Shown: positions 151 to 60,730 of the stretch, in pieces | Layout: every line of letters begins with the position of its first letter | Numbering within the stretch: the first letter of the stretch is position 1 | Position numbers and translations under genes: made by a program | Assembly (NCBI RefSeq): GCF_988243305.1 | Contig: NZ_OZ547136.1 | Reading direction: 5' to 3' (one strand) | DNA length: 64,000 nucleotides | The notes under the pieces: generated by a model | What the model was told of the DNA's origin: nothing | Seen by the model: the letters and a program-made list of their open reading frames with translations, nothing else | Databases searched by the model: none

Positions 151-1244
151 TCCTGAGCCAGAGAAAGCAGTATTTGCATAACGCGCCCTGCGGAAAGCGG
201 GGTGCTGTGAGTAAATACTGCTTGTTTATGTAGCCAGTCGATAAAATGTCTGCTGGTTGCTAAAGAGAGCATTTCAGCTTTGCTGATATTTCCGCCCGTT
301 AATGCACATACCATTTTACGATTTTTTCCCTGAACCCAGAGTTGCCACTGATTTTTCCACCAGCCGTGATAAGTTGTTCCCTGAAAACGCCAGGGCATAT
401 TATCGGTATCGTCAGCTATTTCCTCTTCAATAAACCAAATCTCACCTTGCTGTTGGCGAAACAGATCAGCCCATGCCGTAATAATGGCACCTCTTAAAAA
501 ACACTCGTGTGAAATTACATGTGTTTTTACTGTAGGGAAGAGAATATTCAGTACTCTGAAATGCCCGTGTGCAGTGATAACCGGACGCAGAATAACACCT
601 TTAGCATTGCGTTTGAGCGCTGCGCTGCCATACTGAATTTCATCAAACTGACTGCGGCGTAGAAATTGTGCTTCGCGCATATCAACGCGTTGTACAATAT
701 TACTCTCGTGTAACTCTGGTTCTGCATTCCCTCTGTATCGATAATGCAGACTTTCTCCAGCCTGATGCTGCGTGTAATTAGTAGAAAGATGAAGAATATT
801 ACCGCGAAGAGCATCAAAACTGATTAAAACATACAGTTTCTGCCCGCTGCTGACTCCCTGAAATGGCACGAGAAAAGCAACCGTTTCGATTATTTCAGGA
901 GGCGTTATTTCTTTCTGATATTGTTTGGGTGTCCATACTTTTTTGCAGTTACGGCATTGAATGCGTTGCGAACCCTGTGGATTGTGACCATAACAAATCG
1001 TATCTGTACCATAACATACCGGGCAAAAATGGCCTTTCTCTGTTGCAAAAGTAGATAAGTGAACTGACAACCAGTCACGAAATTGTTGCTCGTCAAACAA
1101 CGGCGGGTAACTGCCACATGCCCGACAGTGCAATGCCGGATAACCCAGTCGATAGTCTGGCCAGCTGTAATCTGTCGAAGTTGGCTGCCCTAAATTACGG
1201 CAACCAAACGACTTGCAGGCATTAATCGTAAACAGAGTCGACAT
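114..1244 (-). CDS. Hypothetical cysteine-rich protein with two predicted N-terminal zinc ribbons (Cx4C...CxxC and CxxC...CxxC), possibly transposase-derived; function unknown
   Basis: 376-aa ORF with ATG start (1242-1244) and a GGTGA Shine-Dalgarno-like motif 5-6 nt upstream. Cys pairs at residues 10/15, 40/43, 74/77 and 97/100; the segment CPVCYG...GSQRIQCRNCKKVW resembles IS1595/ISXO2-type transposase zinc ribbons. No other motif recognised in the C-terminal ~260 aa. Not part of the K-12 gene order as I recall it. Confidence 0.7.
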   Translation of the reverse strand: MSTLFTINACKSFGCRNLGQPTSTDYSWPDYRLGYPALHCRACGSYPPLFDEQQFRDWLSVHLSTFATEKGHFCPVCYGTDTICYGHNPQGSQRIQCRNCKKVWTPKQYQKEITPPEIIETVAFLVPFQGVSSGQKLYVLISFDALRGNILHLSTNYTQHQAGESLHYRYRGNAEPELHESNIVQRVDMREAQFLRRSQFDEIQYGSAALKRNAKGVILRPVITAHGHFRVLNILFPTVKTHVISHECFLRGAIITAWADLFRQQQGEIWFIEEEIADDTDNMPWRFQGTTYHGWWKNQWQLWVQGKNRKMVCALTGGNISKAEMLSLATSRHFIDWLHKQAVFTHSTPLSAGRVMQILLSLAQDYNNCASRLISD

Positions 1245-1301
1245 ATATCACCAACGATTTCACAAGGTCGTTGATTTTGTCCGGCAACGCTCCCTTGTGG
1301 A

Positions 1302-28780: not shown

Positions 28781-28896
28781 AAAAAAAGCGGATCCTGGAG
28801 ATCCGCAAAAGTTCACGTTGGCTTTAGTTATTCGAGTTGAGAAACTCTCGAAACGGGCAGTGACTTCAAGGGTTAAAAGAGGTGCCGCTCCGTTTC
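28781..28896 (-). ncRNA. oxyS: OxyS small regulatory RNA
   Basis: Minus strand reads GAAACGGAGCGGCACCUCUUUUAACCCUUGAAGUCACUGCCCGUUUCGAGAGUUUCUCAACUCGAAUAACUAAAGCCAACGUGAACUUUUGCGGAUCUCCAGGAUCCGC plus a U tract, matching OxyS as recalled; divergent from oxyR. Confidence 0.85.
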
Positions 28897-33773: not shown

Positions 33774-33901
33774 GATGTATCCTGAAAAATTAAAGTACGC
33801 GGCGATTGTAGGGATTGCTCATCAGATGTCCAGATCTTGATGAATTCCTATTTGTGAGCTACGTCTGGACAGTAACTTGTTACAACCTGTAGCATCCACT
33901 T

Positions 33902-34141
33902 GCCGGTCCTGTGAGTTAATAGGGAATCCAGTGCGAATCTGGAGCTGACGCGCAGCGGTAAGGAAAGGTGCGATGATTGCGTTATGCGGACACTGCCATC
34001 TGGTGGGAAGTCATCATCTCTTAGTATCTTAGATACCCCTCCAAGCCCGAAGACCTGCCGGCTAACGTCGCATCTGGTTCTCATCATCGCGTAATATTGA
34101 TGAAACCTGCGGCATCCTTCTTCTATTGTGGATGCTTTACA
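33902..34141 (+). promoter_or_regulatory. btuB leader containing the adenosylcobalamin (B12) riboswitch
   Basis: Sequence GCCGGUCCUGUGAGUUAAUAGGGAAUCCAGUGCGAAUCUGGAGCUGACGCGCAGCGGUAAGGAAAGGUGCGAUGAUUGCG... matches the btuB leader as recalled and lies directly upstream of the btuB start. Confidence 0.8.
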
Positions 34142-37153: not shown

Positions 37154-38695
<1,542 letters not shown>

Positions 38696-38780: not shown

Positions 38781-38856
38781 GTCCCCTTCGTCTAGAGGCC
38801 CAGGACACCGCCCTTTCACGGCGGTAACAGGGGTTCGAATCCCCTAGGGGACGCCA
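38781..38856 (+). tRNA. gltT: tRNA-Glu (UUC) in the 16S-23S spacer
   Basis: GTCCCCTTCGTCTAGAGGCCCAGGACACCGCCCTTTCACGGCGGTAACAGGGGTTCGAATCCCCTAGGGGACGCCA; 76 nt. Confidence 0.95.
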
Positions 38857-39049
38857 CTTGCTGGTTTGTGAGTGAAAGTCACCTGCCTTGATATCTCAAA
38901 ACTCATCTTCGGGTGATGTTTGAGATATTTGCTCTTTAAAAATCTGGATCAAGCTGAAAATTGAAACACTGAACAACGAAAGTTGTTCGTGAGTCTCTCA
39001 AATTTTCGCAACACGATGATGAGTCGAAAGAAACATCTTCGGGTTGTGA

Positions 39050-41953
<2,904 letters not shown>

Positions 41954-42045
41954 ACAACGCCGAAGCTGTTTTGGCGGATGAGAGAAGATTTTCAGCCTGA
42001 TACAGATTAAATCAGAACGCAGAAGCGGTCTGATGAAACAGAATT

Positions 42046-42165
42046 TGCCTGGCGGCCTTAGCGCGGTGGTCCCACCTGACCCCATGCCGAACTCAGAAGT
42101 GAAACGCCGTAGCGCCGATGGTAGTGTGGGGTCTCCCCATGCGAGAGTAGGGAACTGCCAGGCAT
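42046..42165 (+). rRNA. rrfB: 5S ribosomal RNA
   Basis: TGCCTGGCGGCC...GGGAACTGCCAGGCAT; 120 nt. Confidence 0.97.
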
Positions 42166-42177
42166 CAAATTAAGCAG

Positions 42178-42207
42178 AAGGCCCAGTCGGAAGACTGGGC
42201 CTTTTTG
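42178..42207 (+). terminator. rRNA operon Rho-independent terminator
   Basis: aaggcccagtc-ggaa-gactgggcctt hairpin followed by ttttt, 13 nt after the 5S end. Confidence 0.75.
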
Positions 42208-42299
42208 CGTTTCTACAAACTTTCCCTGTCGTCATAACTACAAGCCATCCCCCCACAGATACGGTAAACTAGCCTCGTTTTTGCATCAGGAAAGCAGCT

Positions 42300-43328
42300 A
42301 TGAACCACTCCTTAAAACCCTGGAACACATTTGGCATTGATCATAATGCTCAGCACATTGTATGTGCCGAAGACGAACAACAACTACTCAATGCCTGGCA
42401 GCATGCAACCGCAAAAGGACAATCCGTTCTTATTCTGGGTGAAGGAAGTAATATACTTTTTCTGGAAGACTATCGCGGTACGGTGATCATCAACCGGATC
42501 AAAGGTATCGAAATTCATGATGAACCTGATGCGTGGTATTTACATGTAGGAGCCGGAGAAAACTGGCATCGCCTGGTAAAATACACTTTGCAGGAAGGTA
42601 TGCCTGGTCTGGAAAATCTGGCATTAATTCCTGGTTGTGTCGGCTCATCACCTATCCAGAATATTGGTGCTTATGGCGTAGAATTACAGCGAGTTTGCGC
42701 TTATGTTGATTGTGTTGAACTGGCGACAGGCAAGCAAGTGCGCTTAACTGCCAAAGAGTGCCGTTTTGGCTATCGCGACAGTATTTTTAAACATGAATAC
42801 CAGGATCGCTTCGCCATTGTAGCCGTAGGTCTGCGTCTGCCAAAAGAGTGGCAACCTGTACTAACGTATGGTGACTTAACTCGTCTGGATCCTACAACAA
42901 TAACGCCACAGCAAGTATTTGATGCGGTGTGTCATATGCGCACCACCAAACTTCCTGACCCAAAAGTGAATGGCAATGCCGGTAGTTTCTTCAAAAACCC
43001 TGTTGTATCTGCCGAAACGGCTAAAGCATTACTGGCACAATTTCCAACAGCACCAAATTATCCCCAGGCGGATGGTTCAGTAAAACTGGCAGCAGGTTGG
43101 CTTATCGATCAGTGCCAGCTAAAAGGGATGCAAATGGGTGGGGCTGCGGTGCACCGTCAACAGGCGTTAGTTCTCATTAATGAAGACAATGCAAAAAGCG
43201 AAGATGTGGTGCAACTGGCACACCATGTAAGACAAAAAGTGGGTGAAAAATTTAATGTCTGGCTTGAGCCTGAAGTCCGCTTTATTGGTGCATCAGGTGA
43301 AGTGAGCGCAGTGGAGACGATTTCATGA
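42300..43328 (+). CDS. murB: UDP-N-acetylenolpyruvoylglucosamine reductase
   Basis: 342-aa [33 protein letters not shown]... Confidence 0.95.
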
Positions 43329-44287
43329 AGGATAACACCGTGCCACTGAAATTGATCGCCCTATTAGCGAACGGTGAATTTCACTCTGGCGAGCAGTTGG
43401 GTGAAACGCTGGGAATGAGCCGGGCGGCTATTAATAAACACATTCAGACACTGCGTGACTGGGGCGTTGATGTCTTTACCGTTCCGGGTAAAGGATACAG
43501 CCTGCCTGAGCCTATCCAGTTACTTAATGCTGAACAGATATTGGGTCAGCTGGATGGCGGTAGTGTAACTGTGCTGCCCGTTATTGACTCCACGAATCAG
43601 TACCTTCTTGATCGTATCGGAGAGCTTAAATCGGGCGATGCCTGTGTTGCAGAATACCAGCAGGCTGGCCGTGGTCGCCGGGGTCGGAAATGGTTTTCGC
43701 CTTTTGGCGCAAACTTATATTTGTCGATGTTCTGGCGTCTGGAACAAGGCCCGGCGGCGGCGATTGGTTTAAGTCTGGTTATCGGTATCGTGATGGCGGA
43801 AGTATTACGCAAGCTGGGTGCAGATAAAGTTCGTGTTAAATGGCCTAATGACCTCTATCTGCAGGATCGCAAGCTGGCAGGCATTCTTGTGGAGCTGACT
43901 GGCAAAACCGGCGATGCGGCGCAAATAGTCATTGGAGCCGGGATCAACATGGCAATGCGTCGTGTTGAAGAGAGTGTCGTTAATCAAGGGTGGATCACGC
44001 TGCAGGAAGCCGGGATCAATCTCGATCGTAATACGTTGGCGGCCATGCTGATACGTGAATTACGCGCGGCGCTGGAACTCTTCGAGCAAGAAGGATTGGC
44101 ACCTTATCTTTCGCGCTGGGAAAAGTTGGATAATTTTATTAATCGCCCAGTGAAACTTATCATTGGTGATAAAGAAATATTTGGCATTTCACGCGGAATA
44201 GACAAACAGGGCGCTTTATTGCTTGAGCAGGATGGAATAATAAAACCCTGGATGGGCGGTGAAATATCCCTGCGTAGTGCGGAATAA
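43325..44287 (+). CDS. birA: Biotin--[acetyl-CoA-carboxylase] ligase and bio operon repressor
   Basis: 320-aa [50 protein letters not shown]...; 4-bp overlap with murB. Confidence 0.95.
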
Positions 44288-45630: not shown

Positions 45631-45706
<76 letters not shown>

Positions 45707-45714
45707 TCAAGTCC

Positions 45715-45799
<85 letters not shown>

Positions 45800-45915
45800 A
45801 TTTCGGCCACGCGATGGCGTAGCCCGAGACGATAAGTTCGCTTACCGGCTCGAATAAAGAGAGCTTCTCTCGATATTCAGTGCAGAATGAAAATCAGGTA
45901 GCCGAGTTCCAGGAT

Positions 45916-45990
<75 letters not shown>

Positions 45991-45996
45991 AGATGT

Positions 45997-46072
45997 GCTG
46001 ATATAGCTCAGTTGGTAGAGCGCACCCTTGGTAAGGGTGAGGTCGGCAGTTCGAATCTGCCTATCAGCACCA
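45997..46072 (+). tRNA. thrT: tRNA-Thr
   Basis: GCTGATATAGCTCAGTTGGTAGAGCGCACCCTTGGTAAGGGTGAGGTCGGCAGTTCGAATCTGCCTATCAGCACCA. Confidence 0.95.
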
Positions 46073-60568: not shown

Positions 60569-60730
60569 CAAAACCCACCTTAAGGTGGGTTTCGCCAGAG
60601 AATTATCTCTGGTATTCAGAACGCCATTACCGGACTTTGCCTTGACCTTGCGATAATCGCAGGTTGCGGGATGTCTGAATTTCTTCAGTCTGCTGCATCC
60701 TGGAAGATGAGAACATGTGTTCTTATTTTC
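60566..60730 (-). ncRNA. sroH: Candidate small RNA (consistent with SroH) bounded by a sigma70-like promoter and an intrinsic terminator
   Basis: On the minus strand: -35 TTGTAA (plus 60760-60765), 17-bp spacer, -10 TATGAT (plus 60737-60742); about 165 nt downstream is the hairpin aaacccacc-ttaa-ggtgggttt followed by UUGUUAUUUU, overlapping the yjaZ stop. I recall SroH as ~161 nt and adjacent to yjaZ (htrC). Confidence 0.5.

Follow-up and report, generated by a model that had tools for sequence, protein, structure and literature searches.

A single-hairpin terminator allele at the end of the Escherichia coli rrnB operon, very probably shuffled by gene conversion among rrn operon ends

Introduction

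The closest described counterpart of the locus considered here is the end of the rrnB operon of Escherichia coli K-12, where two terminators, T1 and T2, lie between the 5S rRNA gene and murB (Brosius 1981; Stenum et al. 2021, PMC8144298). Dual terminators of this kind are found in K-12 only at rrnA, rrnB and rrnD, where they enclose the small RNA genes rrA, rrB and rrF (PMC8144298). Transcripts that read through T1 give rise to the RNAs RrA, RrB and RrF. In vitro these bind Hfq and CsrA; their deletion or overexpression has no more than modest effects on CsrA-regulated phenotypes (PMC8144298). According to the figures which that paper quotes from Orosz 1991, T1 stops 87% and T2 100% of transcripts. 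The second relevant system is the concerted evolution of bacterial rRNA operons, the non-reciprocal copying of sequence between the rrn operons of one genome. Its rate has been put at about 3.6e-4 per genome per generation, and the published rates cover 16S, 23S and the 23S-5S spacer (PMC8022953). No paper on strain-level variation of rrn tails or of rrA, rrB and rrF was found in our literature search, the reach of which ended short of the older subscription literature.

In this work we have analysed the end of an rRNA operon in a stretch of 64,000 nucleotides from contig NZ_OZ547136.1, referred to as the window, where one hairpin takes the place of the T1-T2 tandem.

Results

In the window, murB starts at 42300 downstream of the 5S gene, as given by the list of open reading frames and by the RefSeq annotation of matching genomes. 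Since it follows the rRNA operon directly, the operon is rrnB of Escherichia coli (Table 1). The closest complete genome is that of strain NY1601, at 99.9% over 7.8 kb. After the 3' end of 5S the window reads CAAATTAAGCAGAAGGCCCAGTCGGAAGACTGGGCCTTTTTGCGTTTCTACAAAC; the sequence quoted in the first-pass annotation, which had described a single terminator directly after 5S, corresponds to 42166-42220, and both this sequence and the alignment with K-12 bear the description out. One hairpin, GGCCCAGTC-GGAA-GACTGGGCC, with its T-run comes straight after 5S, 98 nt before murB, and no tandem hairpins were seen, this one being the only hairpin between the two genes. It lies in flanks of the type CAAATT..AAGG on the left and CCTTTTTGC on the right, so that the whole has the form of a single-terminator tail.

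Table 1. Positions of the rrnB operon, its tail and other features. Positions are those of the window, except in the last two rows, which refer to extracts from other genomes.
Feature	Position	Strand	Remark
OxyS	28787-28896		
btuB cobalamin riboswitch	33887-34076		
16S rRNA	37154-38695		rRNA operon of the window
tRNA-Glu	38781-38856		between 16S and 23S
StyR-44	38934-39042		match in the 16S-23S spacer
23S rRNA	39050-41953		rRNA operon of the window
5S rRNA gene (rrfB)	42046-42165	+	120-nt extent after K-12 b3971; Rfam match 42048-42163
5S 3' end plus trailer, AACTGCCAGGCATCAAAT	42153-42170	+	one copy in the window (regular expression); two in K-12-type long tails
Terminator hairpin, 9-bp stem GGCCCAGTC/GACTGGGCC, loop GGAA	42180-42201	+	RNAfold; pairing across 9 homologues
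Terminator U-tract, TTTTTGCGTTT	42202-42212	+	same as the K-12 T2 tract
rrnB-specific spacer up to murB	42213-42299	+	contains block ACGGTAAACTA
Block ACGGTAAACTA	42255-42265		about 45 nt upstream of the murB start
murB	42300-43328	+	first gene past the terminator; ORF list, RefSeq annotation of matching genomes
birA	43325-44287		after murB; ORF list, RefSeq annotation of matching genomes
Four tRNAs	45631-46069		precede tufB
P26	51173-51234		
sroH	60570-60730		
Tail of the O157:H7 86-24 derivative	443-490		position in the extract of the derivative locus
rrnE tail of O157:H7 Vac_07.1, compared with it	1200-1245		position in the extract of rrnE

The rest of the window is ordinary and K-12-like, and includes OxyS, the btuB cobalamin riboswitch, StyR-44, four tRNAs, P26 and sroH. 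Within the spacer ahead of murB, the block ACGGTAAACTA is kept from Escherichia to Kluyvera, Salmonella and Phytobacter, and it is probably the promoter region of murB. A consensus promoter scan of 41900-42500 found nothing, including at this block.

With its flanks the hairpin folds at -26.8 kcal/mol (z = -5.2) in RNAfold, and it is not a chance structure, since none of 200 shuffled sequences was as stable. For comparison, K-12 T2 in the same flanks reaches -22.7 kcal/mol and K-12 T1 -32.1 kcal/mol. Seven of the nine pairs of the stem are G-C, TTTTTGCGTTT lies directly 3' of it, and the stem can be extended by pairing of 42174-42179 with the T-run. In a small set of nine homologues (the window, O157, IHE3034, E. 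albertii, E. whittamii, Phytobacter massiliensis and the K-12 T1 copies) pairing was kept in 81 of 81 cells, with compensatory changes in three of the nine pairs; 5 of 500 shuffles did as well in compensatory pairs, and controls slid along the alignment were at most 54% paired. As all stem positions stay paired and three pairs have changed in a compensatory way, the structure is under selection. The consensus terminator scan of 41900-42500 gave no sites and thus did not flag the hairpin at 42180-42201, the likely cause being that pairing between the A-rich left flank and the T-run leaves fewer than five T in the tail window of the scan. In Rfam, searched at a permissive E-value with the window tail and the K-12 T1-T2 segment, there were only sub-threshold chance matches, among them a weak RtT-like match in the rrB core (17 bits against a gathering score of 45). 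The hairpin is the only barrier between rrnB and murB-birA, and with the U-tract of T2 and a stem stronger than that of T2 it would be expected to terminate efficiently.

Alignment with K-12 MG1655 showed the T1 stem GGCTCAGTCGAAAGACTGGGCC, a segment ending in a second AACTGCCAGGCATCAAAT, and then the T2 stem GGCCATCCTGACGGATGGCC in the context CAAATTAAGCAGAAGG...TTTTTGCGTTTCTACAAAC. The first-pass annotation had given this layout (T1, partial 5S repeat, T2) accurately, and its reservation that K-12 might itself carry the identical single terminator does not apply to MG1655. It had also described a T1-like stem within T2 flanks and some 170 bp as absent; the tail of the window is indeed 166 nt shorter than that of K-12 and holds a single T1-like stem in flanks of the T2 type. 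The segment that the window does not have is the published small RNA gene rrB (PMC8144298). When the K-12 T1-to-T2 segment was used as a BLAST query, the hairpin region of the window aligned with its T2 end (87% over 63 nt) and with its T1 start (85% over 39 nt), and the 106-nt rrB core gave no significant match anywhere in the 64-kb window. Nor is there a second copy of AACTGCCAGGCATCAAAT, such as precedes the distal hairpin in K-12, the sole occurrence in the window being that at 42153.

The two forms occupy the same place between 5S and murB, and share the spacer down to murB and the left and right flanks, which in the window are those of K-12 T2. The stem of the window differs by 1 nt from T1 of K-12 rrnA and rrnD and by 2 nt from T1 of rrnB. 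Unlike K-12 rrnB, the window has one hairpin, and neither the rrB core, nor the partial 5S repeat, nor the extended A/T stem of the T1 type. The architecture of the window, 5S followed directly by one hairpin, recurs at K-12 rrnG (5S-CAAATTATGCGAAAGGCCATCCTGACGGATGGCCTTTTTGC), which has the same flank type and U-tract; however, it is a different operon, with a T2-type stem and an operon-specific downstream flank. In the 5S gene itself, nucleotides 12-15 (42057-42060 in the window) read CTTA, as against AGTA in K-12 rrfB and CGTA in ATCC 8739.

How common are the two architectures? The first-pass annotation had proposed a survey, and both were found among 5426 complete E. coli genomes. The long K-12 tail joined to the murB spacer was present in 2516 (46%), and 2887 had just one hairpin from the 5S body to the murB flank, the two forms together making up 5403. 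At least 2132 genomes, O157:H7 and the B2 strain IHE3034 among them, carry the T1-like stem of the window with its murB-side flank, which leaves about 755 or fewer single-hairpin genomes with another stem, mostly of the T2 type. Examples of the T2-stem single form at rrnB are ATCC 8739, E. coli B-LamR and YJ1, in which the murB-side flank is as in K-12. A 55-nt query for such alleles was unusable, since copies from other operons reach exactly the 80% coverage cut-off; junction queries were used instead, one of which undercounts owing to its strict E-value. Long rrnB alleles hardly differ from one another, with 2475 records at or above 99% identity, while the identity bands of window-type alleles are diverse. 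The form seen in the window is therefore an ordinary natural allele, of the single-hairpin kind carried by about half of the sequenced E. coli, and not a deletion or an assembly error.

The same tails are found at other operons. K-12 has the long T1-to-T2 tail at rrnA, rrnB and rrnD and a single T2-stem hairpin at rrnG, and its rrnE, rrnC and rrnH end differently. Strains DG342-2 and WR3-3 have the long tail at rrnE, and the exact single tail of the window ends rrnE of NT1W25 and rrnA of A31. At rrnE of NY1601 a T2 stem sits in precisely the flanks that hold the T1-like stem at its rrnB. Among the Escherichia rrn ends examined that finish in a terminal hairpin of this kind, the common frame runs from 5S...CAAATTAAGCAGAAGG on the left to CCTTTTTGCG on the right, with either CCCAGTC-GGAA-GACTGGG or CCATCC-TGAC-GGATGG as the stem, and the tail of the window looks hybrid because the flanks are shared and either of the two stems sits between them. 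Linkage between the 5S allele at nucleotides 12-15 and the type of tail was not found across operons and strains; the alleles assort independently. We therefore dropped the idea of a fixed cassette of 5S plus tail; conversion tracts must start at various points.

The end of rrnE is itself variable. K-12 rrnE (extract 41760-42300) has a different terminator, CCCCGGTCCATAAGGCCGGGG, followed by yjaA, and in the other strains looked at, DG342-2, WR3-3 and O157:H7 Vac_07.1 among them, 5S plus tail abut yjaB directly. From the sequences, yjaA plus its terminator look like an insertion polymorphism.

One transfer of a tail could be resolved. In a derivative of O157:H7 86-24 (NZ_CP017249.1) the hairpin and left flank of rrnB are replaced by CAAATAAAGCGAAAGGCCATCCTGACGGATGGCCTTTTTGCGTT, while the end of 23S, the spacer, 5S and the murB-side flank are those of other O157:H7, all O157-specific SNPs on both sides included. 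The sequence CAAATAAAGCGAAAGGCCATCCTGACGGATGGCCTTTTTGCGTT is the rrnE tail of O157:H7, with identity up to GGCCTTTTTGCGTT, and rrnB and rrnE diverge right after GCGTT. This is an intragenomic gene conversion from rrnE to rrnB, the tract having its left side within identical rRNA genes and its right end within about 14 (12-14) shared nucleotides. Conversion between the ends of rrn operons therefore occurs, and one stem can be exchanged for the other in this way. The sequence GGCCTTTTTGCG, which is common to the terminal hairpin of most Escherichia rrn tails examined, probably marks where conversion tracts end on the right.

Outside E. coli, a murB-anchored scan of species-representative genomes recovered 20 loci, many of them cut at the rRNA repeat and none from E. 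fergusonii. A single hairpin at murB was found in E. whittamii, Escherichia sp. E1V33 and the divergent strain E69, and also in Superficieibacter, Phytobacter ursingii, Kosakonia, Kluyvera cryocrescens and a Citrobacter. The stem of E. whittamii is T1-like with a compensatory change, and that of E. albertii is likewise T1-like, on a contig cut 9 nt upstream of the hairpin. The long form was found at murB in Salmonella enterica diarizonae, Kluyvera genomosp. 3 and Phytobacter diazotrophicus. On contig QFQM01000754.1 (1.2 kb), which bears the label 'MAG: Flavobacterium psychrophilum', there is also a 5S-terminator-murB junction, of enterobacterial, Phytobacter-like sequence; the contig has likely been misbinned or is a contaminant.

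Discussion

We consider it very probable that the feature in the window is the native Rho-independent terminator of rrnB, in the form of a single-terminator allele that is shuffled by gene conversion among the ends of rrn operons. Once transcription has passed 5S, the 9-bp GC-rich hairpin with its GGAA loop would form 15 nt downstream of the 3' end of that gene, with UUUUUGCGUUU behind it, and the transcript would be expected to stop about 90-100 nt before murB, on an allele that does without the T1, the rrB small RNA gene and the partial 5S repeat of K-12. Conversion among the seven rrn operons of a genome would move stems and also whole tails, whether single or T1-rrB-T2, with the left side of the tract anchored within the rRNA genes, which are identical, and its right end falling within the 12-14 nt that the tails have in common directly past the hairpin. 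The copying is of the same non-reciprocal kind as that described for rrn operons in PMC8022953, and goes beyond that study in that it reaches past 5S into the terminator and ends within those few shared nucleotides. That conversion extends into the terminator and can end within some 14 shared nucleotides explains the mosaic look of rrn 3' ends. No single event that we saw accounts for the first origin of a T1-like stem within flanks of the T2 type.

Which of the two forms at rrnB is older? Within Escherichia the single hairpin is more likely the older state, and the more parsimonious one, because it is present in 2887 of the 5426 E. coli genomes and in E. whittamii, E1V33 and E69. The near-uniformity of the long alleles, set against the diversity of the window type, also fits a younger long allele. 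Probably the long tail at rrnB is a copy of that of rrnA or rrnD, both of which have the module in K-12. Across the family the tail state at murB appears to have flipped repeatedly.

Could the tail of the window instead have come from a K-12-like T1-rrB-T2 ancestor, through unequal recombination or slippage between the 18-nt repeats and a second event that changed the stem? The first-pass annotation had proposed recombination between the 5S-derived repeats, and one part of this idea holds: the two copies of AACTGCCAGGCATCAAAT in K-12 bound exactly the 166 nt absent from the window, so that recombination between them can remove the segment. The predicted simple product even exists, at rrnB of ATCC 8739, E. 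coli B-LamR and YJ1, with K-12-type flanks. The other part does not hold, because such a deletion leaves the T2 stem and the stem of the window is not T2. A two-step path is possible, as the O157:H7 derivative demonstrates that a stem can be replaced by conversion. However, the window-type allele occurs in its 2132 or more genomes with diverse flanks while the long alleles hardly vary, the sister taxa examined have single hairpins, and the murB-side flank of the window differs from that of K-12. Taken together, we regard descent by deletion as improbable.

It may also be asked whether homologous recombination brought the allele in from a different E. coli lineage along with the murB region, so that it did not arise within the genome. 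K-12 with its long tail shares one murB-side flank with ATCC 8739 and E. coli B, which have the single T2 stem, the type of tail follows no simple lineage rule, and in its flank alleles the window agrees with NY1601 and is similar to O157:H7. Transfer of this kind would explain the spread of the allele but not its origin, and is compatible with conversion among rrn ends; moreover, the sole event that could be resolved, that in the O157:H7 derivative, was intragenomic. As an account in its own right we think it very unlikely; in the spread of the allele both intragenomic conversion and recombination between strains may have taken part. That the 166 bp were collapsed during assembly is a thought that rRNA operons, as classic sites of collapse, and the flanking 18-nt repeat naturally invite, but its probability is negligible, because 2887 independent complete genomes and other Escherichia species show a single hairpin at rrnB, and because T2, and not a T1-like stem, is what would remain after a collapse across the repeats. 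Moreover, the stem of the window, at least one base off the K-12 T1 copies and in different flanks, cannot be built from K-12-type pieces.

The sRNA core of rrA, rrB and rrF was found in 3945 of the 5426 complete genomes, at one to nine places in each (median 2), some of them on plasmids, and was not detected in 1481 (about 27%) at the sensitivity of megablast. Tentatively, and with rather less than even confidence, we suggest that T1-rrB-T2 is an optional cassette which is added to or removed from individual operons by conversion, is present in zero to several copies and is absent from about 27% of the genomes. If this is true, strains in nature can do without the sRNA, and the 'rrnB T1T2' terminator that is standard in vectors mirrors the K-12 lineage and not the species. 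That strains with the allele of the window have no rrB gene, and 27% of genomes none of the sRNA family, bears on the still unclear function of RrA, RrB and RrF.

The findings carry little weight for biology at large; in practice, the allele should not be flagged as a deletion or a misassembly. K-12 is unrepresentative at the much-used end of rrnB, with T1-T2 in only 46% of complete E. coli genomes. Mildly new are the population frequencies, the clean case of conversion in O157:H7 and the suggestion that the rrB-type module is optional.

Perhaps both of the terminal stems have been retained owing to a difference in how much transcription they let through to the genes downstream. The T2-type hairpin, for its part, occurs with the loop TGAC or GTCA, as seen on comparing rrnE of DG342-2 (about 1630-1650 of the extract) with rrnE of WR3-3, and also in Superficieibacter electus. 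With GTCA the entire palindrome is reverse-complemented, and this points to hairpin inversion or template switching.
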